From the NCBI RefSeq assembly GCF_041929185.1, contig NZ_JBHFNO010000043.1: a DNA stretch of 26,008 nt. One strand, given 5' to 3'. Shown piece by piece: positions 876-25,946 of this stretch. Numbering within the stretch: the first letter of the stretch is position 1; every line of letters starts with the position of its first letter. Both the position numbers and the translations under genes were made by a program. The notes under the pieces are model-generated. The model saw only the letters and a program-made list of their open reading frames with translations. It was not told the origin of the DNA and did not search any database. This stretch comes from Aerosakkonema funiforme BLCC-F2 (GTDB lineage: Bacteria > Cyanobacteriota > Cyanobacteriia > Cyanobacteriales > Aerosakkonemataceae).

Positions 876-1358
876 ATGAATCAGGGTGGCAAAGCAAATG
901 AATTTGGTAAACGTTTAGAAAGTCTTGTAGAAACAACATTGCAAACACACGGATATATTAATTTATGCAACCAAGTACCTGAAAAGCAACGCTTAGAAAC
1001 ACTCCATTATGCTATCGTACCAAAACGATATGGCAAGCAGGTTTACATCGGTAAGGGAATTTATGAAACTGATATTAAGGTAGATTTTTACGTTGTTGGT
1101 TTACCAACTATTCCTCATCGCTTAATCATCGAATGCAAATGGCAACAAACTAAAGGCTCGGTTGATGAAAAATTTCCCTACTTAAATTTAAATATTCTAG
1201 AACATTATCTAGAGAAAACTATTGTAATAATTGCTGGAACATCGGCTAGGGAAGGAGCAATTAAGTGGTTTGAAAACCGGGTAAAAGATAATCCAAACCT
1301 TTTGGCAGTCTATAATTCGATGGATAGTTTTATGGTATGGGCAAACAGAAATTTTTAA
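876..1358 (+). CDS. small PD-(D/E)xK-like nuclease, candidate restriction endonuclease partner of the convergent Dam-family methyltransferase
   Basis: 160 aa; AGGAG about 10 nt upstream of ATG; D...ECK arrangement (ETDIKVDFYVV ... LIIECKWQ) typical of PD-(D/E)xK catalytic cores. 3' end overlaps the 3' end of the methyltransferase gene by 29 nt (convergent pair). AT-rich like its partner. Unusually small for a type II REase. Confidence 0.4.
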   Translation: MNQGGKANEFGKRLESLVETTLQTHGYINLCNQVPEKQRLETLHYAIVPKRYGKQVYIGKGIYETDIKVDFYVVGLPTIPHRLIIECKWQQTKGSVDEKFPYLNLNILEHYLEKTIVIIAGTSAREGAIKWFENRVKDNPNLLAVYNSMDSFMVWANRNF

Positions 1359-2190
1359 CTCTTACTAAAACTTCAGAAATCATGCCCCTTTTCTTCGCAT
1401 TGGAGTTAATATACCTTGCTGCTAATATATCCTCAATATGAAAATCTTTGTACAATTCTCGAATAAATTCGCAATTGGAATTAGACAGCATTACTTTTAC
1501 GTCTTGACTGGCGAGTTTGGCAAACACTTCTTTTAGCCTAATTTGGTCTTCTTTCCTAAACGCATTGCGAGTATAAGCTGTAAATTCGCTGGTATTGCTG
1601 AGAGGATAGTACGGGGGATCGAAATAAACAAAATCATCGCTAGTTTTCGCATAATCTAAAACAGCCTCAAAACTTCTTTCTGCAATCTCAACGCCTTGAA
1701 GTGTTTTTGATACTGTGTAAAGTAAATCTGGATTAGAAATTTTAGGATTTTTGTATTTACCTACAGGTACGTTAAATTCACCTTTCGGGTTAACTCTATA
1801 AAGACCGTTGAAGCAAGTTTTATTGAGATAAATAAACCGCGCAGCTGCTTCTAACCCCTTCAAATCATGGCAATTTCGTAAATTGTAATAGTAATCTGAA
1901 TTATGTTTTTGTTGATGTTCTTCCAAAAGAGCAATCAACTTATCAACACGATCTCTAACACAAATATATGTATTAATTAAGTCAGGATTAATATCTGTTA
2001 AAACAGCTTTGAATGCTGGTCGAGTTTGTTTAAGGTAAAAGAATACTGCACCGCCTCCCAAAAAAGGTTCGTAATAGGTCTTAAATTCCTTGGGAAAAAA
2101 TGTCTCATATTGAGTAATCAACTTACTTTTACCACCAGCCCATTTGAGAAACGGACGAACAGAAACCTTGTCTTTAGCAGTAGTGGACAT
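1330..2190 (-). CDS. Dam-family N6-adenine DNA methyltransferase (GATC-type, DpnM/MboIA/Dam-like)
   Basis: 286 aa. N-terminal FLKWAGGKSKL (AdoMet-binding motif of the Dam family) and catalytic DPPY motif (FVYFDPPYYPLS). About 35% GC and no HIP1 sites, unlike the flanking DNA. Confidence 0.85.
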   Translation of the reverse strand: MSTTAKDKVSVRPFLKWAGGKSKLITQYETFFPKEFKTYYEPFLGGGAVFFYLKQTRPAFKAVLTDINPDLINTYICVRDRVDKLIALLEEHQQKHNSDYYYNLRNCHDLKGLEAAARFIYLNKTCFNGLYRVNPKGEFNVPVGKYKNPKISNPDLLYTVSKTLQGVEIAERSFEAVLDYAKTSDDFVYFDPPYYPLSNTSEFTAYTRNAFRKEDQIRLKEVFAKLASQDVKVMLSNSNCEFIRELYKDFHIEDILAARYINSNAKKRGMISEVLVRVKNFCLPIP

Positions 2191-9853: not shown

Positions 9854-9854
9854 G

Positions 9855-10202
9855 TAACCCACCGACACTTATCTCATCGTAGGGTGGGTTAGGCACGGGC
9901 AATAACTTCCACACTTTCAAGCAATAATTAACTCTCCGTGCCGTAACCCACCGACACTTATCTCATCGTAGGGTGGGTTAGGCACGGGCAATAACTTCCA
10001 CACTTTCAAGCAATAATTAACTCTCCGTGCCGTAACCCACCGACACTTATCTATAACATACATAAACACTTTAGCTCTTTCGGATTTATGGGTAAAAATG
10101 TTTGTTAATGTTACAGTTGAGTGTGATGGTGGGTTACGGCACGGGAACTAAATTATCGGTTGAAAGTTTTGAAATTATCGCCCGTGCCTAACCCACCCTA
10201 CG
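9855..10202. mobile_element. cluster of MITE-like hairpin elements: 89-bp unit x2.2 in direct orientation followed by one inverted copy; about 23-30 bp terminal inverted repeat CGTAGGGTGGGTTAGGCACGGGC(A/G)ATAA
   Basis: Unit ...CGTAGGGTGGGTTAGGCACGGGC-N37-CCGTGCCGTAACCCACC... starts at 9855, 9944 and 10033 (period 89). Reverse-complement copy 10128-10202 ends ...GCCCGTGCCTAACCCACCCTACG. The same family recurs at 24466-24978. Confidence 0.5.
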
Positions 10203-10836: not shown

Positions 10837-10893
10837 ATGTTTGGCGGCGCTTCTGCGGTTAGTGTGGGATGGCGGAAACCCCACCCCCAACCC

Positions 10894-11050
10894 CTCCCCG
10901 TCCACGGGGAGGGGTGAAACAGGTGTAGGGGGAGGGGTGAAACAGGTGTAGGGGGAGGGGTGAAACAGGTTCGCGGGGAGGGGTGAAAGAGGTGTAGGGG
11001 GAGGGGTGAAACAGGTTCGCGGGGAGGGGTGAAAGAGAGAGGGGCTTCAG
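10894..11050. repeat. six tandem 23-bp G-rich units (AGGTGTAG/AGGTTCGC + GGGGAGGGGTGAAAC); first unit preserves a CTCCCCG-loop-GGGGAGGGGTGAAAC hairpin resembling the CRISPR repeat 3' half
   Basis: Units end at 10920, 10943, 10966, 10989, 11012 and 11035 (period 23). G-tracts GGGGAGGGG x6 on the + strand. Lies in the convergent gap between the fibrillin-like gene and the last gene of the cas operon. Confidence 0.8.
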
Positions 11051-11113: not shown

Positions 11114-11734
11114 CTAATCAACGCATTTGACGCTTTTGATACTGCCATTTTTTAAGGCTGTTATTTTTACTTTTACGATCTGCCCTTGCTGGAGAGAACT
11201 CGCTTTTTTCGGTTCTTTTTCAGTCAATTTAATCGCGCCTAATATTTGATATGTCACTTTATTACCTGCAATGCCAATAACTTGGGCATCTAAGATTTGA
11301 TCGATCGCAAAATCTTGAGATTGCGTCACTTGTAAAATTTCGGCTTGCCGAGTAGATTCTATGACAGGAGCGGTAATTTCGCCGATCGGTCCCGCTTCTT
11401 TGTAGTAGCGCATTAAGCGAATTGACCACCCTAAAATTTGCAGGATAGCTGTTACATCATTTTGATAAAGTTGCAAATATTTGGTGCAAGTTCTTTCTAT
11501 GCTATCATAATATCCAGATGTTTTTTGGCTATATCCGATTCTATTACCTTGGCGGGAAAGTGTTTGCAGATAACTAAAAAATTTCGTGCCGGCATTTTCG
11601 CGATCGCTATAAGCGCGAAGATATGCCATCACTTTACCCAATTCATTTACATCAGTCTCTTCTTTGACCAATGTTTGAGCAATTCCGTGAGCAATTTGCC
11701 ATTGAATTTCGGTTAAATCGGTGGTAGTAAACAT
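11114..11734 (-). CDS. hypothetical protein, terminal gene of the type III operon (alpha-helical N-terminal half, Lys/Val-rich beta-rich C-terminal tail)
   Basis: 206 aa. Start abuts the stop of the upstream RAMP gene (11735), implying co-transcription. No recognisable motif; N-half resembles small alpha-helical Cas11-type subunits only in composition. Confidence 0.55.
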   Translation of the reverse strand: MFTTTDLTEIQWQIAHGIAQTLVKEETDVNELGKVMAYLRAYSDRENAGTKFFSYLQTLSRQGNRIGYSQKTSGYYDSIERTCTKYLQLYQNDVTAILQILGWSIRLMRYYKEAGPIGEITAPVIESTRQAEILQVTQSQDFAIDQILDAQVIGIAGNKVTYQILGAIKLTEKEPKKASSLQQGQIVKVKITALKNGSIKSVKCVD

Positions 11735-12775
11735 TTAATAAACTCCGTCTATAGGTTCTCTAGTTGTCGGCCATTGCAGAACTTGTTGTAACTCTTTCAA
11801 TTGTTGAGATTGTACTAATTGGGTGGATGCCGATCGCACGGCTTTTTGGATGAATTCCTGGAGGGAATTACCAGTCAGAGAAGGGGGTGAGGTGTTGTAA
11901 TTGCAATAGCGATCGCGCCATTCTTTCTCTTTTTCAATCCGCTGAATTTCTGTTACTTCAACTACCATCGTTCCCATACCAATTGGTTTACCGCCTCCCA
12001 CTTTTAAAGCAATGGGATTTTTACTATCTTGTCCTAACACAATCAACAGCGTTCCCAATTCGGCTAAACTTAAATTCCTAAATCCAATTTGGGTAGTAAA
12101 TATCAATTCTTTTCCCGCTTGTTGAACTGGAATACCTTGTTGTCCTTTGTCAATCGATTTAACAAAATGGTAATAAAACTTGCGTCCAGCTATTCTTCCA
12201 TTTATATAGTAGCCGGCACGTTGTTTTCTGGGTGCATAAAGTGAGGGCATAAATCCCACACTCCACTGTGCATTGTTGAGAATCGCATCAGAAAAGCGAA
12301 TCAAACCTTGCCAATCCATTGCCCCAAAAACTTGACAAGCCGGACAAAGTTTAGTATTATCTTTACATTCCCGATAACCATTCGGAATTTGACTCTGTTC
12401 TGCCTTAGTTTTGCACAAACAACTGCGCGTAATTGCTTCATAAGCAGAACGCACAACGCCTTTAAGGGAACTTCCCGGAACGATCGACTGTCGATCGCGT
12501 CCAACGGCAGTTTTGATTAGGGGGATATTTTTGGCATTTCCCGATAAGTCGCTACCCATTGCGACAACGCCAGAAGCGACAAAAGTAGCGGTTTTCACCG
12601 TTAAGCGCAGAAAGATTGTACCGCTAATGCGATCGCTTTTAAACCGATCTTGTCCAATTGGTTTATCTCGCGGTGGCGGCTGACTGGGTAGAGAAATGAG
12701 TTGATAAGGTTTTGGATTAGCAGTTTCTGGTGCAGGATTAGGTTGAGGGCGTCGAATTGGTCGATTGTTAGTCAT
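11735..12775 (-). CDS. Cas7-group RAMP with zinc finger (Csm5-like subunit of a type III-D complex)
   Basis: 346 aa. RAMP G-rich loop IVPGSSLKGVVRSAYEAI, Zn finger CKDNTKLCPACQVFG, C-terminal glycine loop KVGGGKPIGMG. Pro-rich N-terminal extension. 4-nt overlap with the upstream gene. Confidence 0.7.
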   Translation of the reverse strand: MTNNRPIRRPQPNPAPETANPKPYQLISLPSQPPPRDKPIGQDRFKSDRISGTIFLRLTVKTATFVASGVVAMGSDLSGNAKNIPLIKTAVGRDRQSIVPGSSLKGVVRSAYEAITRSCLCKTKAEQSQIPNGYRECKDNTKLCPACQVFGAMDWQGLIRFSDAILNNAQWSVGFMPSLYAPRKQRAGYYINGRIAGRKFYYHFVKSIDKGQQGIPVQQAGKELIFTTQIGFRNLSLAELGTLLIVLGQDSKNPIALKVGGGKPIGMGTMVVEVTEIQRIEKEKEWRDRYCNYNTSPPSLTGNSLQEFIQKAVRSASTQLVQSQQLKELQQVLQWPTTREPIDGVY

Positions 12776-13287
12776 GGGGATATCTCAACAGTGAGAGCGA
12801 TAAAATGTACCGTGGAAGTTTCGCGATCGATGAAATAACGTTGAGCTATTTTAACTTTGTTTGGATTATTCTTTTCATCCTTAATTATGGGATTGAGAGC
12901 GTCAGGTACAATGAATTTTTGGGGAAACCGAGTTTCATCGGGACGATAAATGTAAGCAGGTCGTTGTTCTACTTTCCACTCTATCTTTTTATCTTGTTCC
13001 TTTTTTTTATCTCGTTCCTCATCAATAGAAGTGAAAGCAGAATCTTTACCAGTTATTGACAGCAATAATACTGAATAACCTTGACCTTGTTGTTTCCAAC
13101 GCAATTCGCGATCGCAATTAAACATTTGTCCTTCTGGACTGGGAAATTCTTTTAATTCCTCTACAATTCCACTGACGCGATCTTGCCACCGAAGAAAGTA
13201 ATAAGTAGGCTTTTTCGCAAATTTATCTAGCAATTTTCTGAGATCTTCAGATGAGTCAACTTGTTTAATACCTACAAAAGGATTCAT
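12772..13287 (-). CDS. hypothetical protein occupying the position of csx19 (all1473 family) in type III-D operons
   Basis: 171 aa. ATGA-type 4-nt overlaps with both flanking RAMP genes (13284 and 12775). Lys/Glu-rich central segment. No motif recognised; assignment is positional only. Confidence 0.5.
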   Translation of the reverse strand: MNPFVGIKQVDSSEDLRKLLDKFAKKPTYYFLRWQDRVSGIVEELKEFPSPEGQMFNCDRELRWKQQGQGYSVLLLSITGKDSAFTSIDEERDKKKEQDKKIEWKVEQRPAYIYRPDETRFPQKFIVPDALNPIIKDEKNNPNKVKIAQRYFIDRETSTVHFIALTVEISP

Positions 13288-14234
13288 GCTGCTGTCCCTT
13301 GCAATATTTCACACCAAGCTTCTACAGTTTGCGAGAACAATTCACGCACTTTATCGCTCCCTTCCCAACTCTGTTGCACGCCAAAATTAAACTCAATTGG
13401 TGTTGTTTTTGGTGATGTTTCTTTCAGATCGTTAGGGGGAAAACCATAGCGGTTTCTTTCTTCATCTTCCAGAAACATTCCCGCACCCAATAAGGAAGTA
13501 AGCGGCCATTTTGTTTCTGTGCCGATCGCGCTAATTTGTTCATCTTTTATAATACAGCCAGGATATTGGACAACGGCTGAATTTAACTTAACTTCCACCA
13601 ATCCCAAACCGCGAGATTTAGCGAAACCTAATCCAAACCAACCTTGATTTAAATCGCGCAATACTAAACCGATTAATCCTAATTGTGCAAGGGTAAAATT
13701 TCTGAGATGAATTTTGGTATGAAATTCTCCGGCGGTACAAACTTGAAAATTAAATGGCCCTACAGCGACCGAACCAAACACTCTGTCAATAGCTACGCCA
13801 TTGCGTTCTTCAATTTTCAACAATTTGGGATTAACCGGATAAGCATCTTCTATTCTGACGCGACTGGCGATCGCAGTATTGCCAAACATTTGATCGGTAA
13901 AAGAAGACAATTTATAGATATCTGACGTTGATTTATTTTGCAGATATTCGTATTTGTCATTGAGTGGATCGTTTGCCCATAAACTATTTGCATTATTGGG
14001 GTCGCGGCGATCGCTTCCCACCGTCCGCACAATGCGTTCCGCATGGGCGCGAATAGCACCTTTGAGAGAACTTCCGGGTAAGTAAATTGTCCGTCCTCCG
14101 CCGTGATAGGTTTCCACAAATTCCATATCCGGTTTCGTAGGGTCAGCACCTTCTTTGCCAGATTTAATTAAGATAGGGCCAGCAGGTGTGATGGTTAATT
14201 TTATTGTACATTGATTGACAAATCGTTTAAACAT
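13284..14234 (-). CDS. csm3: Csm3 (Cas7) RAMP backbone subunit
   Basis: 316 aa. YLPGSSLKGAIRAHAERI (G-rich loop 1), QMFGNTAIASRVRIEDAY, NGVAIDRVFGSVAVGPFNFQVCTAG (thumb), GFAKSRGLGLVEVKL (glycine loop). Confidence 0.8.
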   Translation of the reverse strand: MFKRFVNQCTIKLTITPAGPILIKSGKEGADPTKPDMEFVETYHGGGRTIYLPGSSLKGAIRAHAERIVRTVGSDRRDPNNANSLWANDPLNDKYEYLQNKSTSDIYKLSSFTDQMFGNTAIASRVRIEDAYPVNPKLLKIEERNGVAIDRVFGSVAVGPFNFQVCTAGEFHTKIHLRNFTLAQLGLIGLVLRDLNQGWFGLGFAKSRGLGLVEVKLNSAVVQYPGCIIKDEQISAIGTETKWPLTSLLGAGMFLEDEERNRYGFPPNDLKETSPKTTPIEFNFGVQQSWEGSDKVRELFSQTVEAWCEILQGTAA

Positions 14235-15126
14235 TGCTGTTTTCCTCGGCAGTGGTATTAGCAGACATGAAAGTTCTTAAATGGGTAATCAAAGCATTTG
14301 TCCATTCCTGTTTGAGGAAAGCAATTCTTTCTGGATAACATGAGTAAATATCCATTTTTCCGTTAACCAGATTTTGCAGGTAATTTAGTAATAATTCTGG
14401 ATCGTCTTCTGCATCAAACCATTGCATTTCTTTAATATCCAATTTCACTACACCCAATCCGCGAGAACGTCCGCCGCCTAACGGAATTTGTTCGGTTTCA
14501 AATTGGTGTAACCCGATGGTTAATAAACCTAATTCCCAAGGTTCGGCGTTTTCAACTACTGCTTTAAACTCAAATTGCGTTCCTGCCGGTACAACTTGAA
14601 AATCGTATAATTTCGCATCAGCAGCAGTTTCGGTATCGCGATCGATCGCAACTCCATCTCGTTCTTGATATTGTCCAAACCAACTATCTGGTAATACCGT
14701 TAAATCGCGCACTTGAAATTTACTCGCAATCCAAGGAGAACCGAATAAGTGAGAAGCTAAATCGGTTTCTTTTAAAATTGCAGTGGTGAGGTCAAAATCA
14801 TCTTTGTTTTCGTCCTTAAGTTTCTTGATTTCATCAGCTTTTAGCGACCATTCCTCCTCTACGGCGGGATTGGCGACTAATTTGCGTAGGGCAATGCCCT
14901 TGTTGAAGGCATCGCTTCCCACAATCCCGCGCAGGAAGCTTTCCAAACGCGATCGCAAAGCACCTTTAAAACTCGACCCCGGAATTAAAGGTCGTCCCAC
15001 CGCATCTTTAATTACTGGTAAATCGGAACCGATTGGTTCTGTGGAACGTCCCGCGCCAATTCGCAAAGCGGTGATAGTGGTGAGAGTTCCGCTGATTTCC
15101 AAACGACTTTTGAAAGTATCAAACAT
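14227..15126 (-). CDS. csm3: Csm3 (Cas7) RAMP backbone subunit, second paralog
   Basis: 299 aa. LIPGSSFKGALRSRLE, HLFGSPWIASKFQVRD, DGVAIDRDTETAADAKLYDFQVV, GGGRSRGLGVVKLD. 8-nt overlap with the downstream csm3. Confidence 0.8.
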   Translation of the reverse strand: MFDTFKSRLEISGTLTTITALRIGAGRSTEPIGSDLPVIKDAVGRPLIPGSSFKGALRSRLESFLRGIVGSDAFNKGIALRKLVANPAVEEEWSLKADEIKKLKDENKDDFDLTTAILKETDLASHLFGSPWIASKFQVRDLTVLPDSWFGQYQERDGVAIDRDTETAADAKLYDFQVVPAGTQFEFKAVVENAEPWELGLLTIGLHQFETEQIPLGGGRSRGLGVVKLDIKEMQWFDAEDDPELLLNYLQNLVNGKMDIYSCYPERIAFLKQEWTNALITHLRTFMSANTTAEENSNV

Positions 15127-15140
15127 AGTTTACCTTATTT

Positions 15141-15707
15141 TCAATTTAAACTCAACCAGCTAAACACATCTTGCGCGGATAACTGTAAATCTTCCAGAGA
15201 ACTTAACACGGGTAAATTGTCTTGATTTTCCTTAGTTTCTGGTTGTTGACCTGGACGAAAAACCATGATAATTTTCTCTTCAGGATCGATTAACCAGCCT
15301 AATTCTGTTCCCGCATTTAAACAAAAAAGGATGTTACCAATCACGCGAGTTGAGCTTTGTTCTGGGGAAAGAATTTCAATTACCCAATCTGGATGAATGG
15401 AAAAAGAATTTTCGATTTCGCCGTTAGCATCTAAAGGGATACGTTGCCAAGAAAAAACGCTGATATCTGGCACAATTGAACGACCGCCAAAGGTGCAACG
15501 CAATTCTGTAAAAGCACTAGCTAAACGATTAGGTTCGCCTACCCTATTAATTTCGGTTGAGAAGCGAGTTTGCAATCGGCTATGTTTTCCTTTTGGCATA
15601 GGTTTTTGATAGATTTGTCCGTCTATATATTCACTAGCTGGTTTAGTTTCTGGGAGTTGCAGAAATTCGGCTAATGATATTTTGGTGGAAAGTTTTGTGG
15701 ATGTCAT
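15141..15707 (-). CDS. Uma2-family (DUF820) PD-(D/E)xK endonuclease inserted inside the type III effector operon
   Basis: 188 aa. Hallmark Uma2 motifs LAEFLQLPE...EYIDGQI (N-terminal) and VPDISV...PDWVIEILSPEQS (PD...EIxSP core). 29-nt and 14-nt gaps to the flanking csm2 and csm3 genes on the same strand. Confidence 0.75.
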   Translation of the reverse strand: MTSTKLSTKISLAEFLQLPETKPASEYIDGQIYQKPMPKGKHSRLQTRFSTEINRVGEPNRLASAFTELRCTFGGRSIVPDISVFSWQRIPLDANGEIENSFSIHPDWVIEILSPEQSSTRVIGNILFCLNAGTELGWLIDPEEKIIMVFRPGQQPETKENQDNLPVLSSLEDLQLSAQDVFSWLSLN

Positions 15708-15736
15708 GGTTGAACAATTGATAATTTAAAAACAAA

Positions 15737-16144
15737 TTACTTGGAATTGATGTATTTCAAGTATCGAGCGCCATACCCCAAGTAGCGGCGAATTAATTCT
15801 AACCAAATAGATTTGAAATCAGAACCAGAAATTTCTTTGTGAATAACATTAGCTTTCTGCTTGATTTGAGTATCAATATCATTGACAATTTTTGCTGCTA
15901 ATGAATTGTCACCTCTTCCCCATTTCTTATCGCGCCCGACTTGATAGCGCAAGAAATTTTTAATCACTTCTGGGCTATCGGTTGTATCTGCAACGCGCAC
16001 TAAGTTGCGAAATTGAGTTTCTTGTAAGTCGCCATAGGATTGACGATTGTCTAAAGCTGCTTGAATCCATAACACTAAATCATCTTCAGCAAGACGGATG
16101 TTTTTTTGTACTTTGAGTTCTATCTGTTGTTCTGCTAGGTTCAT
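15737..16144 (-). CDS. csm2: Csm2 (Cas11) small subunit
   Basis: 135 aa, all-alpha composition. LQETQFRNLVRV matches the Csm2 LTTSQ(I/L)RK motif; NFLRYQVGRDKK and RRYLGYGARYLKY match the (V/F)xYQxGRE and C-terminal aromatic/Gly motifs of Csm2 (compared with the S. thermophilus Csm2 sequence recalled from memory). ATGA overlap with the upstream RAMP gene. Confidence 0.6.
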   Translation of the reverse strand: MNLAEQQIELKVQKNIRLAEDDLVLWIQAALDNRQSYGDLQETQFRNLVRVADTTDSPEVIKNFLRYQVGRDKKWGRGDNSLAAKIVNDIDTQIKQKANVIHKEISGSDFKSIWLELIRRYLGYGARYLKYINSK

Positions 16145-17376
16145 ACAGCGTTTTCCCGAAATACTAAATGAAATTCATTGCAAACCTGAACTTGACCGAA
16201 TCCTTCCGAAGTACGTTCCCCAACTCCTTTTAATTCTAAATTCCCTAATGCTCGATACCAAATGTCTGGCGAACTTGTACTAAACAAATACACGGCACCT
16301 TTATTGGTAACTAATTCTACATCTTTCATCAATCCCCATGCGGTATTCCAGCCAGAACGATAATCGTAGCTGGTATATGCAACGTGCAGTTTTAAAGAAG
16401 GGTCATCGATCGCAGCATACTTTTTCAACATTCTATCATTAATTACTGTGGTACGTTGCCAATTTTCAGTAAAAATGGCATCGGATTGTAAATCAATGGT
16501 GAAATAGGTGCGGTCTAATAGCAAATCTTGCTGGGTTTCGCCAAAGATTTCTCCCCACTTTTGCCATCTTTTTTTAAGTTCATCGTTAAACTTGGCGATC
16601 CGAGGTTCTACTGTCGCTGCGGCGTTACCTATGTCTGCGATAATTTCCGCTTTTCCTAATCCCCGCGATGCAGAACCACCCAATCGAAAAGAATGGCGAT
16701 TGATAAAATCAGTTAGGTTATTAGCTAATTCCTCATTGTCTAATAAAATTTTGCTGCGATAGGTAGCAGGTTCCTCTTTTCCTTCCACTTCATTTAATAC
16801 TTCAATGCTGTAAAGCACCTGTTCTTCAGAAGTGGCGCGACGGCGGTTGATACCGACTCGCGTTAGCAGTCGAGTCGTGGTTGAAAGTTGATAGTAATTG
16901 TTACCGACACAAGCATAAAAACCGCTATAAGGTTCTACTCTTCCACAGTCTACCGGACAATTTGGATCGTAAGGATGGTTGTAACCTCCGGCGCAAAAAC
17001 GATCGATCAACGTATCGAAGACACCGTGCTTTTTGGGATCTGTTTTAAAACCGGGATTGGTTTTAGAACTAACTGCTGTGGCGGGGAGTACCTGAATTGG
17101 ATTAGGTAGCAAGGTTGGTTTATCTTGAATTTTGGCGATCGCAGGATAACCATTCTGGAAAATTGCCGCATTTTCGCCTAAGAATAAGCTGTGGAAGTCG
17201 TCACCTGCTTCTGGTGTGGGGGATTCAGATTCGCGGAGGATTCCAGATGCGATCGCACCCCTGATTACCGATGCGGGTATATAGCTTTCGGCTTCACTGA
17301 CGGAACCACCAGGCTTTTGTCGTCCAATGGCTAACGGTGAAGCTGCTGTAATTGTTAGTTGAATTTCGTAAGTCAT
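16141..17376 (-). CDS. Cas5-group RAMP (Csx10/Csm4-like large RAMP subunit)
   Basis: 411 aa. N-terminal LTITAASPLAIG...YIPASVIRGAIASGIL (Cas5/Csm4-type start) and C-terminal glycine loop GGSASRGLGKAEI. The size fits Csx10 of type III-D. Confidence 0.65.
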   Translation of the reverse strand: MTYEIQLTITAASPLAIGRQKPGGSVSEAESYIPASVIRGAIASGILRESESPTPEAGDDFHSLFLGENAAIFQNGYPAIAKIQDKPTLLPNPIQVLPATAVSSKTNPGFKTDPKKHGVFDTLIDRFCAGGYNHPYDPNCPVDCGRVEPYSGFYACVGNNYYQLSTTTRLLTRVGINRRRATSEEQVLYSIEVLNEVEGKEEPATYRSKILLDNEELANNLTDFINRHSFRLGGSASRGLGKAEIIADIGNAAATVEPRIAKFNDELKKRWQKWGEIFGETQQDLLLDRTYFTIDLQSDAIFTENWQRTTVINDRMLKKYAAIDDPSLKLHVAYTSYDYRSGWNTAWGLMKDVELVTNKGAVYLFSTSSPDIWYRALGNLELKGVGERTSEGFGQVQVCNEFHLVFRENAV

Positions 17377-17427: not shown

Positions 17428-18141
17428 TTAAGTTTTTAAAGCATTCCAAACGTTATCATCAATTTTTAGGTCTGGAAATTTCCAATGCAACCAACCTAAA
17501 CCACCTGATTTACTACCACCTAAAGCATGGATGTGATGTAATGCTGCGAATAAAAGCGGTTTAGTATAGGCGGGACAATCCGGTAAAAAATGAATGTGAC
17601 TGGAAAATTCGAGTTGGATATTTGCGGGAGATGTTTCTAAGAGAAATAGCTTTTGGTCTTCGGAAGTACGACGGCGGCGATTGATGGTAACGCCGGGACG
17701 CAATACTTCTGGGAGATTTTCTGCTTTTTCGTTGCAAATGAGGTCATCAAATAGCAGGCGCGAAGGTAAGGCGGGATTGCCAAATATTTGACAAATCAGA
17801 CAGTGATAACGTTCATCTCCTTCTACTTGATAATCTGGACGATGAAATTTTATTTCTTCGTTTTCTGGAAATTTTGCGCGTTGGGGACACATGGTTTGGG
17901 GGTTGGGAGATTCGCAGATTTTCCAATGCAAACCTCTGGCTATTTTTTCGCATTCGTGACGCAGGCGACCTTTGAATTGAGAAGCGGGAATTAGTAATTT
18001 TCCGGTTGCTGTGCGAACAATTGGTTTATCTGCTAGTGTTCCCGATGTACCGCCTGCGCCAACGCACAAAGCACTGTCTATTACCGCAGTTATGGATAGA
18101 GATTCTGTTGAATTTTGCCTTAAGTTTTGGAGTTGGATCAT
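17428..18141 (-). CDS. Cas7-group RAMP with zinc finger (Csm3-like, first backbone subunit after cas10)
   Basis: 237 aa. LLIPASQFKGRLRHECEKI, Cys cluster CESPNPQTMCPQ...HCLICQIFG, glycine loop GGSKSGGLGWLHW. Confidence 0.7.
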   Translation of the reverse strand: MIQLQNLRQNSTESLSITAVIDSALCVGAGGTSGTLADKPIVRTATGKLLIPASQFKGRLRHECEKIARGLHWKICESPNPQTMCPQRAKFPENEEIKFHRPDYQVEGDERYHCLICQIFGNPALPSRLLFDDLICNEKAENLPEVLRPGVTINRRRRTSEDQKLFLLETSPANIQLEFSSHIHFLPDCPAYTKPLLFAALHHIHALGGSKSGGLGWLHWKFPDLKIDDNVWNALKT

Positions 18142-18245: not shown

Positions 18246-20774
18246 TTAAGTAGATAAATTGTCGCCCGAATGCTTCGCCCCTACATTTAACCTATCTGTA
18301 TCTTGAATTTTGGCGTCAAGGGTTTGCGAAACTTCGATAAAAGGATAAAGGTCTACTAACTCGCGCCAAATAGTTTCGTAAGTGGACTTTTTTAATAAGT
18401 TTAAAATCACACTTTGTAACTGAACTTGACTGGTTGGTAAAAGTTTTAAGGAAAACATTAGAACTACTTTCCTGAAGATTCCAGCCTTCTCAAAAAGCCA
18501 AGGGGCTAAGTAACCATCATTTGTTGCTGCTTGACACCAAGCATCCTCAAAATTTTCTTTTAGTAACTGTTGTTCTTTTGAACCCAAACGCACGCGGAAA
18601 TAACGATAGTTGAGGATGGCGGTGTTTTTGCCTCGTTCCAGTAAACTGCGAATTTGATAGAGTTGCGATCGCGGAAATCCCGACTGTTTTATTGCTTTGG
18701 CTGTTTCCAGCAGTCCGCCTAGTTCATGCAGCGTGTAAGGTGCAGCATGAAGTTTGAGTTTTTGGTTATCTTTGATCGATTTGGTTAAACCTTCTCGGCG
18801 GAACGAACTGATATTTGATGATATCATTGTAACTGATTTCATCACCAAAAAGTCAACCGTACCGCCATAATAATGATAGTGTTTTTTCAACTCTTTAGCA
18901 CGCGCTTTCGCAGATTTGAGTAACTGTTCCGTTAATTTTTGAGCGTAATAAATCGGCGTGGTGTAGGCGGTAATCAAAACACCGATCGACATACTCAATT
19001 GACATTCGGAGGGGTTCTGTGGCGGCGGTTGGTAACGATGACAGGCGATTGATTTCGCATCATCTCGCTGGGATGCGGGAATTTCATATCTTTTTCCTAA
19101 ATCAGTTAATCGCTTCTCGAATTCTTCACCGATCGTTTGCGCGATCGCCAATGCTTTATCTGCTGGTACAATCAGCAATACATCGTCACCGCCAATAGTT
19201 AAAATTTCAAAGGGATGAATGACAACACCATTTCGATGTTGATGTTCTTTTCCAGTTAAGCCACTTAACCGATGGGGCTTTAGATGCGTGAGAGCTTCAT
19301 AAACTGAATTTTCCGTTGCATCGAAAATATCTTCACTAAACTGAGCGTAATCCGCTGGAGTTTTAATCTTTTGGATGTAGCCACCCATATTGTTACCATC
19401 TGCATAAATGTAAGCAACAAATCCATTGCTAGCATTGCCGATTTCTGTGAGCGATCGCGCTTGCTGAATTCCGCTATTGCTAAAACCTGCGTAATATTTG
19501 CGCCAACGTTCTAACTTGAGTAAAAACCGCTCAAACTTATTGACCCAACTTTCTACTTCTCCGGGTTGCCATTCAAGTTTTGTGCGTTCGTACCATTCTC
19601 GTTCTTGTTCTTCCTTCGAGATTTGACCTATTATTCGCTTACGCGCTAACGCTTCCGAAAACCAAGGTTCGTTGGGAAGCTCAGTCGCATGAAAAATAGC
19701 AGAACGGCAATCCCCTTCATCCCTTTTCAAGTAAGGATGAGTATCAAAAATCGGCGGGTAGCAACGGCTGGGACGTTCTGAACCAGGTAAATCGTTACCG
19801 CTGCGTCGGTGATTAAATTGTGCGGCTAATTTACCTGCTAATTCGTTAAAACTTTTGCGATTATTAAATAATTCTCCCCAATTTTCTTCTCCTTCTAAGC
19901 TACCGAAGTAAGCTTTTACTAAATCATTGTTGCGATTTTTTTCGTGATTGTTGCGATTTTTTTCGTACCAATCTAGCCAGAGTGTTTGTTCAATTGGATC
20001 GCGCAGCAACCCAAAACGCACTTCTAGTAATTTGAAGCTATCCCCAACAGCACAAGAGTTAGCCGTTAAAGTTTGTTCGGTATAACGCCGTTCAATCGCA
20101 TTCGCTAAATCGTCGATGTAAGCAGCAGGACAAAATGCGAGGATATTACCACCCGTTGAATAGATTATCAGTTCTGGGATGAGAGCATCTGAAAGCTTGA
20201 GATTATCTGCATCACCGGGAAAGCAGTTATCTAACCACTGTTTTACTTCTTCGCAGTGTGCTGTGTAACGGGGAGACTCTGGCGGTTTTCCGAAAAAAGC
20301 GGGTAAGTCGATCAGATTGATTCGATCGAGTAGTGCAGAAGCACCCCGGATGTCTTGCAGCTTAGCCGCTTCAAAAACGTAACCTTTAATTTTGGTAGCA
20401 CCGCCATAAACTAAGCCGATGGGAGTATTCCACGCTTGAGGATTTTCCCGTTGCAAGGCTTCAAAGGTTTGACGTAGTTTTTCAGCGGTGTCTGGAAACT
20501 TCAGGTTATCGATTTTTTGCGCTTGTTCTAGAAATGGTTGAATTGCAGCTGGAATACTTTTTCCTTCTTTGAGAGTCTGTTTAATTGTCTGCAACTCGGA
20601 TAGGTCGAACAGAGGTGTGGGTCGATCGCCCCAGGCGAGACACCAAGCGATTCCTATCGAAAGCTTCGTTGATATTGTCATCATACCATTTTGCAAAGTT
20701 TTCACTCTAAAGGACTTTTTTCCAAATCTGGGTAATGCCAACATTCCCAAACTCTTTGCTGTATTTTGACACAC
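18246..20774 (-). CDS. cas10: Cas10 (Csm1/Cmr2-type large subunit) with intact GGDD cyclase palm motif and no recognisable N-terminal HD nuclease motif
   Basis: 842 aa as listed. The start at 20774 is GTG; alternative ATG starts lie at residues 11 and 31. Palm motifs AYIYADGNNMGG and ILTIGGDDVLLIVPAD, Cys cluster, GASALLDRI. The first 150 residues contain no H-D dyad in HD-domain context. Confidence 0.85.
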   Translation of the reverse strand: MCQNTAKSLGMLALPRFGKKSFRVKTLQNGMMTISTKLSIGIAWCLAWGDRPTPLFDLSELQTIKQTLKEGKSIPAAIQPFLEQAQKIDNLKFPDTAEKLRQTFEALQRENPQAWNTPIGLVYGGATKIKGYVFEAAKLQDIRGASALLDRINLIDLPAFFGKPPESPRYTAHCEEVKQWLDNCFPGDADNLKLSDALIPELIIYSTGGNILAFCPAAYIDDLANAIERRYTEQTLTANSCAVGDSFKLLEVRFGLLRDPIEQTLWLDWYEKNRNNHEKNRNNDLVKAYFGSLEGEENWGELFNNRKSFNELAGKLAAQFNHRRSGNDLPGSERPSRCYPPIFDTHPYLKRDEGDCRSAIFHATELPNEPWFSEALARKRIIGQISKEEQEREWYERTKLEWQPGEVESWVNKFERFLLKLERWRKYYAGFSNSGIQQARSLTEIGNASNGFVAYIYADGNNMGGYIQKIKTPADYAQFSEDIFDATENSVYEALTHLKPHRLSGLTGKEHQHRNGVVIHPFEILTIGGDDVLLIVPADKALAIAQTIGEEFEKRLTDLGKRYEIPASQRDDAKSIACHRYQPPPQNPSECQLSMSIGVLITAYTTPIYYAQKLTEQLLKSAKARAKELKKHYHYYGGTVDFLVMKSVTMISSNISSFRREGLTKSIKDNQKLKLHAAPYTLHELGGLLETAKAIKQSGFPRSQLYQIRSLLERGKNTAILNYRYFRVRLGSKEQQLLKENFEDAWCQAATNDGYLAPWLFEKAGIFRKVVLMFSLKLLPTSQVQLQSVILNLLKKSTYETIWRELVDLYPFIEVSQTLDAKIQDTDRLNVGAKHSGDNLST

Positions 20775-21974: not shown

Positions 21975-22571
21975 TTACGAACTCGCCATCGCACCTTGCT
22001 GCAACTCTCTCACCACCCATTCCAATTCCTCGACCATCCAACTGCTACTCAACTGGCGGTAAATCTGCAATTGTTCTTGATAAAGCCATAACACCCCTTC
22101 CTTACCGCCTCGGAAATAATGCCAAATTTCTTCGCCAAATTGCCTAAAATTAACCAACATAGTCCGCGCATTGTGCAACTTATCCGCCAGCATCACGCGC
22201 TGGACTGGCGGACAAGCATCGCGTAACTGTTGGAGATATTGCTGTTTGTGTTCCCTCCAAGTCGGATATAAACTCGGTTCTGGCTCGGTGCAACCTTCTA
22301 TAATATGGAAAACGCGATCGCCAAATCGCTGCAAAATTTCCGCCTTCGTTACTTCTCCCCCTCGGTCTTCCAGCGCATCGTGCAATAAAGCAGAAATTGC
22401 CTCATCTTCATCTCCTCCATCTTCCAACACCAAAGCCGCGACGCTCAACAAATGGGCAATATAAGGAGTACCTGTAATTTTCCGTTGTTGGTCGCCATGA
22501 AGTTGCGCCGCATATACCAACGCTTCCTGAAAACGCGAAGTTAAAATTGTCAAACACCGTTCATTCTTCAT
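21975..22571 (-). CDS. small alarmone hydrolase (SAH; Mesh1/SpoT-like HD-domain (p)ppGpp/(p)ppApp pyrophosphohydrolase family)
   Basis: 198 aa. GTPYIAHLLSVA...AISALLHDALED...ILQRFGDRV...MLADKLHN align motif-by-motif with human Mesh1 (GTPYINHPIGVA...AALLHDTVEDT...HFGAQV...KLADKLYN; sequence recalled from memory). ATG lies 11 nt inside the 3' end of the upstream WYL gene (overlap in a different frame). Confidence 0.8.
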   Translation of the reverse strand: MKNERCLTILTSRFQEALVYAAQLHGDQQRKITGTPYIAHLLSVAALVLEDGGDEDEAISALLHDALEDRGGEVTKAEILQRFGDRVFHIIEGCTEPEPSLYPTWREHKQQYLQQLRDACPPVQRVMLADKLHNARTMLVNFRQFGEEIWHYFRGGKEGVLWLYQEQLQIYRQLSSSWMVEELEWVVRELQQGAMASS

Positions 22572-23976
22572 AATTTTTCCATTCTCGTTCGATTTCTTTC
22601 CTCGCCTGTTCTCGTAATTCCACAGGGAGGAGAATTTCTACATTCGGTCGCCACGCACGCAAGCGCTGCATTACATTAGGATCGCCTTGGCGATATTGCG
22701 CTTGGTAATAAGCATCTTGGGGAGAACGTTTGCGCCAAATATTTAACATCTTTTGTTGTTGTTCTCCCTTTAAGTTCTGCCGAATTAATCGTTCTACTTC
22801 TTGATATGCCACTCGCGCAAAGGTAGCATGGCGCATAGTATTGCGGATGTAGCGATTATCCCACTCGCGATCGAACCTCAATAGTAGCAGTTGTGCGGGT
22901 TGATAGTAATCAAAACCCCAAACTTCTGCGATCGCTAATTGGATATCATCGGGAATAGGCAGAGTATTCTTTTGATATCGCTGTTTCAGCGCCACTGGAA
23001 CTTGCGAATCTTCCCAACTCAAAGGGATCGAATCCTGAATGCGATCGAGTCGATAATTGCGAAAATCTAATTTTCCCGATTCGTCTTGCGGAACTTCGCC
23101 AAACGCACACAGATACGGCCCTCTCTGATAATAATAAATGCAAACCGGATAAACTACCACCGACAAAGTTGTTTGCCAAACCGCACTTTCATAACTTAAC
23201 AAAATCGGCGGTACAACTTCCTTTTGCCAAAGTTCCCGCAGTTGTGCTTGCCATTCCTCCACGCGATCGATCGAGTCTTGGGGAATCACATATTCCAGAT
23301 GGATAAAAAAGCGCTGCTGACCATTCAATCGCGTCGAAAGATTATCTGCGATCGCAGCCAAATCCGGTTGCGTGAGAAAATCCAAATTGTAAGCTATCAG
23401 ACGAGAATCTGATTTTTGGATCGAACTCGGCGTCCGTGGATATTTCTTAACCCGATAATACCGATTTCCTTGGCGTTTCAGCCACCCGATTTCTATCAAA
23501 ACTTGCAAATCGCCATAAAGCGATCGTCTTGTCAAGCCAAACAAACGAGTATCGTGCAACAATTCTTTAAGGTTATCCGGTAACAAATGATGTTCCCGCA
23601 AAGATTGTTCAAACGATCGCTCTTTTTCCTGCACTTCCGGCTTCCCTAATTCCCCTTTCCACTTTGACTGAGTTAAATTGAAATTAGAGCCAAATAACCA
23701 AGCCGCAACAGTTTTGGCACAACGGCATTTCGGGTCGTGCAACGCCGGAATTTCTTCTTCTCTAGTATGAGTCGCAGTAAAAAAAGCATCTCGCCATTCA
23801 GGATAAGTAAAATTTTCCGGCAAATTCAACTTAATGCCGGCTTCCCCATACAGAAAGTGCAGCCACACCCACAACCGCACCGCCTGTAGCAATCTTTGTT
23901 TTAAATCTCCCCGCGCCAGCCATTGCAGTAGTTCCACGCGAGGAGGTTCATTCCAAAAGGGGCCGATCGTTTCCAA
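22561..23976 (-). CDS. WYL-domain transcriptional regulator (wHTH + WYL + C-terminal extension), CRISPR-associated type
   Basis: 471 aa. wHTH-like LLHDTRLFGLTRRSLYGDLQVLIEIGWLKRQGNRYYRV. WYL-domain signature VVVYPVCIYYYQRGPYLCAFGE...FRNYRLDRIQ (YL...RLDRI). Translationally coupled to the SAH gene. Confidence 0.7.
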   Translation of the reverse strand: METIGPFWNEPPRVELLQWLARGDLKQRLLQAVRLWVWLHFLYGEAGIKLNLPENFTYPEWRDAFFTATHTREEEIPALHDPKCRCAKTVAAWLFGSNFNLTQSKWKGELGKPEVQEKERSFEQSLREHHLLPDNLKELLHDTRLFGLTRRSLYGDLQVLIEIGWLKRQGNRYYRVKKYPRTPSSIQKSDSRLIAYNLDFLTQPDLAAIADNLSTRLNGQQRFFIHLEYVIPQDSIDRVEEWQAQLRELWQKEVVPPILLSYESAVWQTTLSVVVYPVCIYYYQRGPYLCAFGEVPQDESGKLDFRNYRLDRIQDSIPLSWEDSQVPVALKQRYQKNTLPIPDDIQLAIAEVWGFDYYQPAQLLLLRFDREWDNRYIRNTMRHATFARVAYQEVERLIRQNLKGEQQQKMLNIWRKRSPQDAYYQAQYRQGDPNVMQRLRAWRPNVEILLPVELREQARKEIEREWKNYEE

Positions 23977-24465: not shown

Positions 24466-24978
24466 ATCGTAGGGTGGGTTAGGCACGGGCAATAATTTCA
24501 ATACTTTCGATCGATAATTAAGTTCCCGTGCCGTAACCCACCATCCCACCTACCTGTAACATTGACAAACATTTTCCACCATAAACCCTCTAGACCCGAA
24601 GATTGTACCCTATCAACCCAAAAGAACCAAGCGTTAAAACGCAACAACATACGAAGGTCTGTAAATCTAGCTCTTTCAAGTTTATGCTTCGCTTTTGTAA
24701 CAGACAATTGTGATGGTGGGTTACGGCACGGACAGTTAATTATTAGTTTTTTGAGAGAAATTATCGCCCGTGCCTAACCCACCCTACAGGTTACAAAAAG
24801 CTATCAACCCAAAAGAACCAAGCGTTAAAACGCAACAACATACGAAGGTCTGTAAATCTAGCTCTTTCAAGTTTTTGGTTCGCTTTTGTAACAGAAAATT
24901 GTGATGGTGGGTTACGGCACGGACAGTTAATTATTAGTTTTTTGAGAGAAATTATCGCCCGTGCCTAACCCACCCTAC
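24466..24978. mobile_element. second cluster of the same MITE-like hairpin family: one forward copy, then a 191-bp unit duplicated in tandem, each ending in an inverted copy
   Basis: Forward end ATCGTAGGGTGGGTTAGGCACGGGCAATAAT at 24466-24542. Reverse ends ...ATTATCGCCCGTGCCTAACCCACCCTAC at 24715-24786 and 24906-24977. CTATCAACCC... unit starts at 24610 and 24801. Internal segment (TAGCTCTTTC...GTAACAG...TGTGATGGTGGGTT) is homologous to the left cluster at 10060-10135. Confidence 0.5.
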
Positions 24979-25013: not shown

Positions 25014-25946
25014 ATGAATACGATCGCCTTACAAAAACAAGTTGAACTGCAAGTCACCGAACTGAAAACCGCACAAGGAAGTTATCAAACTTTGGCGATT
25101 AGCTTAGTGATGTTCCAGGAACTAATAAAAACTGATGTACTCGCACAATTGAAACTTCCTGACGAACTAGACTTGAGCAGAGAAGTAATTTTATACGGTA
25201 TAGCTCCTACTTGGTTGTATGCCAATTTAGTAGAACGCTGTTGGCAAGCGCCTTGGATAGGATGCTATACAGCGCCAAAAAATCAAATTGTTGTAATTCA
25301 AAGTCGGATATCAACAATAAGTATAGGCGATGCGATACCTGTATTGCTTAACAACATTCCTTGTCCGGCAATTTTAATAGGTGGTTCGCCTGACAGCGGC
25401 AAAAGCGTTTTATCGAATGCTTTGCGTTTTAATTTGATGAAAACCGGAGCATTCAAACGAGTATTTGTACATCGCGCTTCTTGGGATGGTGAGGGAAATT
25501 GGGTTTACGAAGTAGCGAATCGGGATTTAGCTAAAAAGCTGATTGTAGAAAACGAGTTTCGATTGCACGAAAATCCCGAAACGGCGAAGTTAATACCGAA
25601 ATTCTTTAAATATCATAGCTCGGCGGTACAGAATTTGCGGGAAGTTGTCGATTTGGTTTTGGTTGATGTGGGTGGTAAACCGCAGCAAGAGAAAGCGCCT
25701 CTGGTCGCACAATGTACGCACTATATAATTATTAGTAAAGAATCAGATGAGATTCCCAAATGGCACGAGCTTTGTCATCCAACTTTGCAGCCGTTAACGG
25801 TGATTCACAGCGTCCGACAAAAACGAGAAGAAGTTTGGCAAAAACAACCTTTTTTGGAAATCATCGACGGACGCTGGTGCGAAGGTGAAATCCAGTCTGT
25901 TCCCGATATCTTGCTGGAAAATGTGCTTAGGGTTTTGCACGCCTAG
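25014..25946 (+). CDS. Csx3-like N-terminal domain (catalytic His residues substituted) fused to a P-loop NTPase domain
   Basis: 310 aa. N-terminal YGIAPTWLYANLVERCWQAPWIGCYTAPKNQIVVIQSRISTISIGD is clearly paralogous to the 24090 gene, but its His positions are E/W/R. Walker A GGSPDSGKSVLSNAL and Walker B-like LVLVDVGG. Confidence 0.5.
   Translation: MNTIALQKQVELQVTELKTAQGSYQTLAISLVMFQELIKTDVLAQLKLPDELDLSREVILYGIAPTWLYANLVERCWQAPWIGCYTAPKNQIVVIQSRISTISIGDAIPVLLNNIPCPAILIGGSPDSGKSVLSNALRFNLMKTGAFKRVFVHRASWDGEGNWVYEVANRDLAKKLIVENEFRLHENPETAKLIPKFFKYHSSAVQNLREVVDLVLVDVGGKPQQEKAPLVAQCTHYIIISKESDEIPKWHELCHPTLQPLTVIHSVRQKREEVWQKQPFLEIIDGRWCEGEIQSVPDILLENVLRVLHA

Follow-up and report, generated by a model that had tools for sequence, protein, structure and literature searches.

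An Ancient, Optional Uma2 Gene Embedded in the Type III-D CRISPR Effector Operon of Cyanobacteria, a Candidate Accessory Nuclease

The Type III-D Operon and Its Embedded Uma2 Gene

The stretch of 26,008 nucleotides from Aerosakkonema funiforme BLCC-F2 analyzed here (contig NZ_JBHFNO010000043.1; hereafter, the window) contains a type III-D CRISPR effector operon, and embedded in this operon is a gene of the Uma2/DUF820 family (15141..15707, minus strand). The operon runs in the order cas10, cas7, csx10, cas11, Uma2, csx7, cas7, csx19, a csm5-like RAMP gene, and csx21. The Uma2 gene starts with ATG and codes for a protein of 188 amino acids with a PD-(D/E)xK fold (Pfam PF05685), which has an NCBI counterpart of 100% identity in A. 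funiforme. Uma2/DUF820 is among the largest protein families of cyanobacteria, accounting for up to 2% of the genes in some of them, and in twenty years no function has, to our knowledge, been assigned to it. Comparison of the window with related loci led us to conclude with high confidence that this Uma2 gene is an ancient, selectively maintained, and optional paralogue embedded in the cyanobacterial III-D effector operon.

The original prediction, made from the letters of the window alone, had located a Uma2-family PD-(D/E)xK nuclease gene between csm2 and csm3 of an effector operon, with gaps of only 29 and 14 nucleotides on the same strand, and profile searches bore this out. The Uma2 protein matched PF05685 with an E-value of 1.4e-36 (126 bits, with a cut-off at 27; profile positions 2–171 of 172), and the core quoted in that prediction, PDWVIEILSPEQS, corresponds to residues 106–118. 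Upstream lies cas11/csm2 (15737..16144), which codes for the III-D small subunit of 135 amino acids (PADLOC Csm2, 1.8e-61; 'CAS-III-D effector_SS', 3.2e-59) and whose stop is separated from the Uma2 start by a spacer of 29 nucleotides (15708..15736). Directly 3′ of Uma2, after a spacer of 14 nucleotides (15127..15140), lies csx7 (14227..15126), a csm3-type cas7 gene (TIGR02581, 1.7e-73, 246.9 bits, with a cut-off at 108; RAMPs, 3.8e-27). These three genes and all other members of the operon are on the minus strand. Before cas11 come cas10 (18246..20774; Pfam Cas10-Cmr2_palm2; TIGR02577, 5.8e-43), a cas7 gene coding for a RAMP of 237 amino acids (17428..18141; RAMPs, 2.1e-18), and csx10, the Cas5-like signature gene of III-D systems (16141..17376; TIGR02674, 4.5e-134, 447.6 bits, with a cut-off at 177.3). 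After csx7 come a cas7 gene coding for a RAMP of 316 amino acids (13284..14234; RAMPs, 4.6e-27), csx19 (12772..13287; PADLOC Csx19, 7e-51), a csm5-like, TIGR03986-type RAMP gene (11735..12775; TIGR03986, 1.3e-40; RAMPs, 1.7e-12), and the III-D-associated csx21 as last gene (11114..11734; PADLOC Csx21, 5.9e-90). The true start of cas10 is probably near 20684, because homologues align from about residue 28–38 as judged by tblastn coverage.

The operon thus has the features of a III-D module: Csx10, a palm-bearing Cas10 lacking an HD domain, Cas11, several Cas7 RAMPs, Csx19, and a Csm5-like RAMP. The lack of the HD domain, which had been part of the original prediction, was corroborated by Pfam and NCBIfam searches, in which Cas10 gave palm2/Cmr2 matches only and no HD match; its GGDD cyclase motif is intact (residue 528). 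Type III-D systems do without the HD nuclease of Cas10, and there is no settled view on their attack on DNA, either on its mechanism or on its existence.

From csx10 to csx21, all junctions other than those of Uma2 overlap or abut. The coding strand of the operon showed no terminator-like site, and no standout promoter or terminator was seen in the 29-nucleotide spacer. Since Uma2 belongs to one tightly packed co-directional gene string, we hold with high confidence that it is necessarily co-transcribed with the downstream csx7, cas7, csx19, csm5, and csx21 genes.

Uma2 Occupies the Same Slot in Other III-D Loci

A Csx10 scan of species-representative genomes yielded 12 related III-D loci, onto which all window proteins were mapped. 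The same order of cas genes was found in these 12 loci, with csx21 closing the operon in nearly all of them. The canonical III-D order, which Uma2 had been claimed to interrupt, was indeed found uninterrupted in L011 and L012, in which cas11 is followed by csx7 after 16 nucleotides. The cas11–csx7 slot was filled in L002 and L004–L009 by a CARF gene of about 380 codons and no Uma2, and in L001 and L003 by a CARF gene plus a Uma2 gene, the latter directly upstream of csx7 and with a product 72–75% identical to the window copy.

A protein search returned more than 120 Uma2 homologues at 69% identity or above, nine of which were examined on their contigs. Eight of these nine (71–88% identity) were located in the same slot of III-D operons: P0002 from Planktothrix sp. 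FACHB-1355 (locus L013; 88% amino acid identity), P0004 (82%), P0006 (79%), P0120, P0020 (Argonema galeatum), P0093 (Thermocoleostomius sinensis), P0112 (Calothrix sp. 336/3), and P0107 (strain LEGE 07310). The ninth, P0117, was found in a different context, belonging to a helicase-linked sister clade (see below). Three further III-D-embedded copies were added by a metagenome scan (L022, L024, and L025), which brought the total to 14 distinct III-D loci with Uma2 in the same slot. They are distributed over at least five cyanobacterial orders, the host taxa being Aerosakkonematales, Oscillatoriales, Oculatellales, Nodosilineales, Nostocales, and Coleofasciculaceae, and their chromosomal neighborhoods differ. 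Co-directional placement of Uma2 inside cas operons is therefore conserved across divergent hosts, which is one of the marks of a genuine accessory gene.

Additional Uma2 genes, about 33% identical, were observed just beyond the ends of three III-D operons (L011:13847-14116, L012:14174-14422, and L101:10534-10576). Two of these three loci are without an embedded copy, and three loci are too few to separate enrichment from chance.

Selection on Uma2 and Origin of the Embedded Lineage

The ratio of nonsynonymous to synonymous substitution rates (dN/dS) was calculated by the Nei-Gojobori method between the window and L013. It was 0.24 for Uma2 and ranged from 0.13 to 0.30 for nine neighboring cas genes. 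In comparisons of more diverged loci, in which dS has reached saturation, the dN of Uma2 was the lowest or nearly the lowest in the operon. Uma2 is under purifying selection and is not decaying.

These data bear on a second possibility raised in the original prediction, namely that a mobile copy of this highly amplified family had recently, and neutrally, inserted itself into the window operon as a selfish element. Amplification of the family is what speaks for such an event. The closest relative (L013, at 88% amino acid identity) and 12 further loci share the slot, and the 14-nucleotide downstream spacer is identical in L013. Nor were remnants of a repeat context of its own found around Uma2: the window contains no meaningful flanking repeats, the best being a 13-nucleotide AT-rich pair with 85% identity, which is at chance level. 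The combination that the original prediction had named as its refutation, an operon without Uma2 in close relatives together with such remnants, was thus not encountered as far as close relatives are concerned. A recent or neutral insertion was ruled out by the comparative loci and by dN/dS, and the chance that we give it is negligible.

The relationships among Uma2 proteins were analyzed by neighbor joining. A BLOSUM62 tree was built from 93 sequences, and the 12 embedded copies among them grouped into one clade free of interlopers. When Kimura distances were used and one very distant outlier was present, the clade was missed in the point tree and was present in 57–63% of bootstraps. With four outgroups it was recovered at 53% bootstrap, and the alternative of derived dispersed paralogues obtained 6%. 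The clade was thus found in two of three neighbor-joining analyses. Because the embedded copies cluster and share the insertion point, a single capture into the III-D operon would be the simplest reading, to which we attach moderate confidence. In trees of Csx7, Csx10, and Cas7, loci bearing Uma2 and loci without it were interspersed; Uma2 is therefore an optional member of the operon, and several losses are implied.

A possible trace of the capture was detected in L003 (2969-2999), in which a copy of the first 14 nucleotides of csx7 (ATGTTTGATACTTT, 14/14) lies just upstream of Uma2; none of 300 shuffles reached its score. In addition, the proteins called P0016 and P0098 start with 'MLDTFKN(Q/H)LFTN', which is the Csx7 N-terminus. 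The copy in L003 and these N-terminal extensions are probably the scar of the original insertion. In the window, the duplicate was not detected upstream of Uma2 (p about 0.45). Judged from these comparisons, it can be said with high confidence that a distinct lineage of Uma2 paralogues entered the cyanobacterial III-D operon beside the csx7 start long ago; it has evidently travelled with the operon through speciation and horizontal transfer, and has been lost in some lineages.

CARF Loss in the Window and the Accessory Hot Spot

L013 shares with the window a flanking xanthine-dehydrogenase gene, and its operon has the order cas11, CARF7-RelE, Uma2, csx7. Alignment of the junctions revealed that the 1.15-kilobase CARF gene, which corresponds to the CARF7-RelE gene at L013:3540-4682, has been cleanly deleted in the window. 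The breakpoints lie in the two short spacers, and positions 15708-15736 of the window are the junction left behind. The window operon consequently combines an intact cyclase with no CARF effector. Because the neighboring CARF-RelE gene, which would code for an RNase activated by cyclic oligoadenylate, has been deleted, Uma2 appears, with high confidence, to be the only accessory left inside the operon. Uma2 without a CARF gene was also found in T. sinensis (L101). Where present, the CARF neighbors of Uma2 belong to three families, namely CARF7-RelE (L013), CARF1-HEPN (L015), and CARF2-HEPN (L100), and each of these partners comes with an effector domain of its own, RelE or HEPN. The CARF partner thus varies or is missing while Uma2 stays. 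In L106 (5001-6743; strain LEGE 07310, Vasconcelosia/Romeria) Uma2 precedes the CARF gene, the reverse of the order in all other loci.

Can1, Can2, and Card1 are PD-(D/E)xK nucleases activated by cyclic oligoadenylate (cOA) through a fused CARF sensor, and they act in trans as type III effectors. If Uma2 is a DNase, they would be its nearest functional counterparts; Uma2, in contrast, is CARF-free and its presence is independent of CARF genes. No match to a CARF family was obtained for the Uma2 protein in Pfam, NCBIfam, or PADLOC searches, and it consists of a single domain of 188 amino acids. Since a CARF gene adjoins Uma2 in most loci, we considered whether the two could form a split cOA effector, with Uma2 as the nuclease module of the adjacent CARF protein, in the manner of a split Can2/Card1. 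We judge this very improbable: the CARF partners come from three families and have effector domains of their own, Uma2 has no CARF companion in the window or in L101, loci L002 and L004–L009 have CARF but no Uma2, and the gene order is reversed in L106. The variety of CARF families and the independent occurrence of the two genes largely exclude a CARF-plus-Uma2 effector.

The neighboring slot, between csx7 and the next cas7, is occupied in many related loci by one to three copies of a PD_DExK gene coding for 206–209 amino acids (PADLOC PDLC01472, 2.1e-45). It was found in L001, L002, L003, L006–L009, L016 (for example, L016:7514-8134), L100, L101, L106, and L108, and it is absent from the window. 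No sequence similarity between the PD_DExK gene and Uma2 was detectable. Loci contain both genes, either, or neither, so that a complementarity between Uma2 and the PD_DExK gene of the second slot was ruled out by the lack of mutual exclusivity. A complementarity between Uma2 and the Cas10 cyclase was also ruled out, the GGDD motif being intact with and without Uma2 (sole exception, GEDD in L102); the presence of PD_DExK likewise showed no correlation with the state of the cyclase motif.

Locus L025 (134-6545) contains a fused III-Dv-type operon (Cas7-2x of 480 amino acids, Csx19, and Cas7-insertion of 778 amino acids) followed by a cassette made up of Uma2, a csx7 remnant of 119 amino acids, and PD_DExK. 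The same arrangement was found in L022. In both loci Uma2 and PD_DExK are intact around the truncated csx7.

The Uma2 Protein and Its Predicted Active Site

A profile of the embedded clade matched PDB entry 3OT2, an uncharacterized cyanobacterial protein, with an E-value of 3.8e-77 over residues 4–185; identity between the Uma2 protein and this crystallized protein is about 60%. Entries 6OKH, 9Y1L, and 1WDJ also matched the profile, less strongly than 3OT2. Because the match to 3OT2 extends over the whole length, the restriction-endonuclease-like fold of the Uma2 protein can be regarded as settled by homology. An AlphaFold model generated from the clade alignment had a predicted local distance difference test score (pLDDT) of 53.7, probably owing to the shallow alignment, and was too poor to be used. 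The protein was also matched by the PADLOC defense candidate model PDC-S03 (5.8e-17), a name not found in the literature searched.

Feder and Bujnicki predicted the active site of the family to consist of a His, a PD, an E-x-x, and a Lys that has migrated to the following helix, 'PD-EXX-K' (PMC551604). Relative to this pattern, the protein of the window keeps the predicted His, Asp, and Glu, and has Asn at the position of the migrated Lys (N125; N or K across the subfamily), which makes it a 'PD-EXX-N' variant. H42, E68, D81, and E111 were invariant in 93 of 93 subfamily sequences, and residue 121, which stands four residues before N125, was always Arg or Lys (Arg in the window). Uma2 would most likely be a metal-dependent PD-(D/E)xK nuclease; H42, D81, and E111 are its putative metal site, and the migrated lysine of the family may be replaced by the invariably basic residue 121.

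The replacement of this lysine by Asn125, together with the absence of any activity of the family from the literature searched, would also be compatible with a non-catalytic role, in which the fold does no more than bind nucleic acid or protein and the product works, for example, as a regulator, as a scaffold, or as an inhibitor/antitoxin-like partner of another product of the operon. This we consider improbable. Invariance of H42, E68, D81, E111, and the basic residue 121 in the 93 sequences is what an active metal site requires, and the 'PD-EXX-N' form has been described by Feder and Bujnicki as a natural lineage of the family and not as decay (PMC551604).

Uma2 Paralogues Outside CRISPR Operons

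Among the relatives at 54–71% identity recovered in the metagenome scan, a few of the neighbors look defense-like (Piwi, STAND NTPases). A plasmid collection yielded only non-CRISPR paralogues, at most 61% identical, which were solitary and located in miscellaneous contexts. In L039 (1938-4858), a non-CRISPR paralogue was observed 77 nucleotides downstream of, and on the same strand as, a gene coding for a Piwi-domain (prokaryotic Argonaute-like) protein of 759 amino acids.

The sister clade of the embedded Uma2 genes is found within a conserved gene string of its own (L020, L023, L026, L028, and L107; for example, L026:3931-10061). It is composed of genes for a LigT-like phosphoesterase, two unknown proteins of 128 and 147 amino acids, Uma2, a ResIII/DEAD helicase (463–468 amino acids), an AAA_23 SMC-like ATPase (688 amino acids), and a second, divergent Uma2. 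This string looks like an undescribed defense-type module.

Accessory Nuclease or Long-Resident Hitchhiker

The features described above are consistent with a functional proposal, in which Uma2 would be an optional, free-standing accessory of III-D systems, being neither a stoichiometric subunit nor a cOA-sensing effector. Its expression may simply be coupled to that of the effector, and it might cut DNA or structured nucleic acid in trans, providing a nuclease arm for a system with an HD-less Cas10. The idea of a trans-acting DNase, already put forward in the original prediction, is plausible and unproven; it agrees with the absence of HD from Cas10 and with the second, unrelated PD-(D/E)xK gene in the neighboring slot of sister loci. 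That Uma2 is a co-expressed, trans-acting, metal-dependent accessory nuclease, DNA- or structure-directed, for this HD-less system is a proposal we make tentatively, giving it a little less than an even chance. A bolder version, by which the embedded Uma2 would be a dedicated III-D DNase or structure-specific nuclease acting in trans and the whole Uma2/DUF820 family would consist of defense nucleases, we regard as unlikely. If Uma2 were a dedicated DNase, it would supply the DNA-degrading arm that an HD-less Cas10 cannot.

A number of observations weigh against the accessory-nuclease proposal. Close relatives carry the gene, and many related III-D loci at greater distance (L002, L004–L009, L011, and L012) are without it. 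No cas gene was found near 77 of the 80 metagenomic relatives at 54–71% identity, whose tightly spaced same-strand neighbors include Dus, GNAT acetyltransferases, ABC transporters, HEAT-repeat proteins, and epimerases, and the sister clade has a conserved context too. As the contexts of Uma2 genes are well conserved among cyanobacteria, fixation and purifying selection are ordinary in this family and alone are no proof of a CRISPR function. At the protein level, N125 stands at the position of the migrated lysine, and E135 was the sole residue setting the CRISPR-embedded clade apart from the paralogues in the 93-sequence alignment; specialization of the clade seems near-absent, and nothing suggests an adaptation to Cas partners. 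Support for the embedded clade was only moderate (53–63% bootstrap), and the correlation of Uma2 distances with Cas distances was weak to moderate (r = 0.31–0.57), as compared to 0.58–0.68 among Cas proteins. Finally, literature searches gave no demonstrated nuclease activity or substrate for any member of the Uma2 family, and a purified type III-B complex of Microcystis, from a cluster type that includes Uma2 (see below), showed only the five core Cmr proteins (PMC11855584).

The occurrence of Uma2 in many unrelated operons and the scant specialization of the CRISPR clade make a long-resident hitchhiker a serious rival. Under this explanation Uma2 settled once and was kept by selection for a generic function of the family, for example as a solo toxin or a selfish/recombinogenic nuclease, without any contribution to CRISPR, the operon being used only as a source of transcription. 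The Uma2 family is hugely amplified in cyanobacteria, and its members have been proposed to be selfish (PMC551604) or solo toxins (Makarova et al., 2009; PMC2701414). The paralogues at 54–71% identity are found in contexts that are tightly spaced, highly diverse, and for the most part housekeeping, and conservation of genomic context is general among cyanobacterial Uma2 genes, as found in a 2012 survey (PMC3424549), and not special to the embedded clade. The single clade-specific residue, the repeated loss of Uma2 from III-D loci, and the insertion-scar look of the csx7-start copy in L003 and of the P0016 and P0098 extensions fit this explanation as well. A mere hitchhiker is harder to reconcile with the retention of Uma2 while the cas genes diverged to as little as about 50% identity, at different chromosomal sites and in different orders, from which it follows that Uma2 was co-transferred with the module many times. 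The same applies to its intactness in L025 and L022 beside a truncated csx7, and to the use of exactly the same hot spot by two genuine accessory families, the CARF effectors and PD_DExK. We regard the hitchhiker as a real possibility, somewhat less probable than the accessory nuclease. If true, it would be a clean example of a stable non-cas rider in a mobile defense operon and a warning for guilt-by-association catalogues. A Uma2 lineage maintained by purifying selection in III-D operons of at least five orders offers a concrete and genetically tractable test case for DNA attack by III-D systems and for the function of Uma2.

Relation to Known Systems

In systems of the III-A and III-B subtypes, a DNase is provided by the HD nuclease of Cas10, which is unrelated in fold to Uma2; Uma2 is a separate polypeptide and would be analogous to it as a DNase co-expressed with the effector. 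All III-D Cas10 proteins compared here are without HD, whether or not Uma2 is present, and therefore there is no presence/absence complementarity between the two.

A Uma2 gene inside a cyanobacterial type III operon has been listed in Microcystis aeruginosa FACHB-524, as an accessory gene in type III-B clusters 4 and 5 (PMC11855584). The order there is Cas10, Cmr3, Cmr4, Uma2, Cmr5, Cmr1-6, and Uma2 was co-expressed in Escherichia coli (PMC11855584). As in the window lineage, Uma2 is near Cas7/Cas11-type genes with CARF nearby. The FACHB-524 case differs in its subtype (III-B), in its slot (cmr4–cmr5), and in being an annotation-level mention only, free of comparative or functional analysis. 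Uma2 endonucleases near type V-A loci are mentioned in another paper, and the family has also been labelled restriction endonuclease for bookkeeping purposes. No data on a contribution of Uma2 to interference or signaling were found in the literature searched.

The survey of type III accessory genes by Shah et al. (2018) names Csx21, Csx19, Csx3-AAA, WYL, and a PD-DExK cluster, and Uma2 is not listed in its main text (PMC6546367). Cluster 45 of that survey is given there as 'PD-DExK, possible nuclease' (PMC6546367), and we assumed it to be the same family as PADLOC PDLC01472. The CRISPR-associated PD_DExK proteins resemble Uma2 in being small, stand-alone, and CARF-less, and in having genes that are flanked by cas7 genes in the same III-D operons of cyanobacteria; they differ in lying one slot downstream and in being recognized in catalogues of CRISPR accessory genes. 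As a kind, stand-alone genes of nuclease fold within type III operons are familiar. The Uma2 family has been described as having no preferred gene association, whereas the lineage studied here is fixed in the III-D effector operon. This conserved III-D-embedded lineage seems not to have been described before, the sole link of Uma2 to type III operons found in the literature searched being the Microcystis III-B clusters.

Other Features of the Window

Upstream of the effector operon, and also on the minus strand, lies a gene for an HTH-WYL regulator (22561..23976; PADLOC WYL, 1.1e-162; Pfam WYL). Between it and cas10, overlapping the WYL end, is a gene (21975..22571, minus strand) coding for a protein of 198 amino acids with an HD_4 domain of the RelA/SpoT type (Pfam). 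This stand-alone HD hydrolase, encoded beside an HD-less Cas10, had no PADLOC match. A csx3-AAA gene (25014..25946, plus strand; PADLOC Csx3-AAA, 9.3e-65; Pfam Cas_csx3) is divergent from the operon. No CRISPR array was found anywhere in the window.

Directly after the csx21 stop, at 10890-11040, about 5.6 tandem units of 23 nucleotides (GGGGAGGGGTGAAACAGGTGTAG, plus strand) were observed. The series closes with a hairpin rich in G+C (coding strand, CCCCTCCCCG-tgga-CGGGGAGGGG), and this is possibly the terminator region of the operon. Rfam searches gave no RNA family in the window, the tandem-unit and hairpin region included. The CRISPR module is flanked by two intergenic tandem duplications, one of 89 nucleotides repeated 2.2 times with 100% identity (9854-10052) and the other of 191 nucleotides repeated 1.9 times with 98% identity (24610-24978). 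Near the beginning of the window, a PDDEXK_11 nuclease gene (876-1358, plus strand) and a gene for a Dam-type D12 N6-adenine methyltransferase (1330-2190, minus strand) are convergent and overlap at their 3′ ends; the two genes (876-2190) are probably a type II restriction-modification pair.

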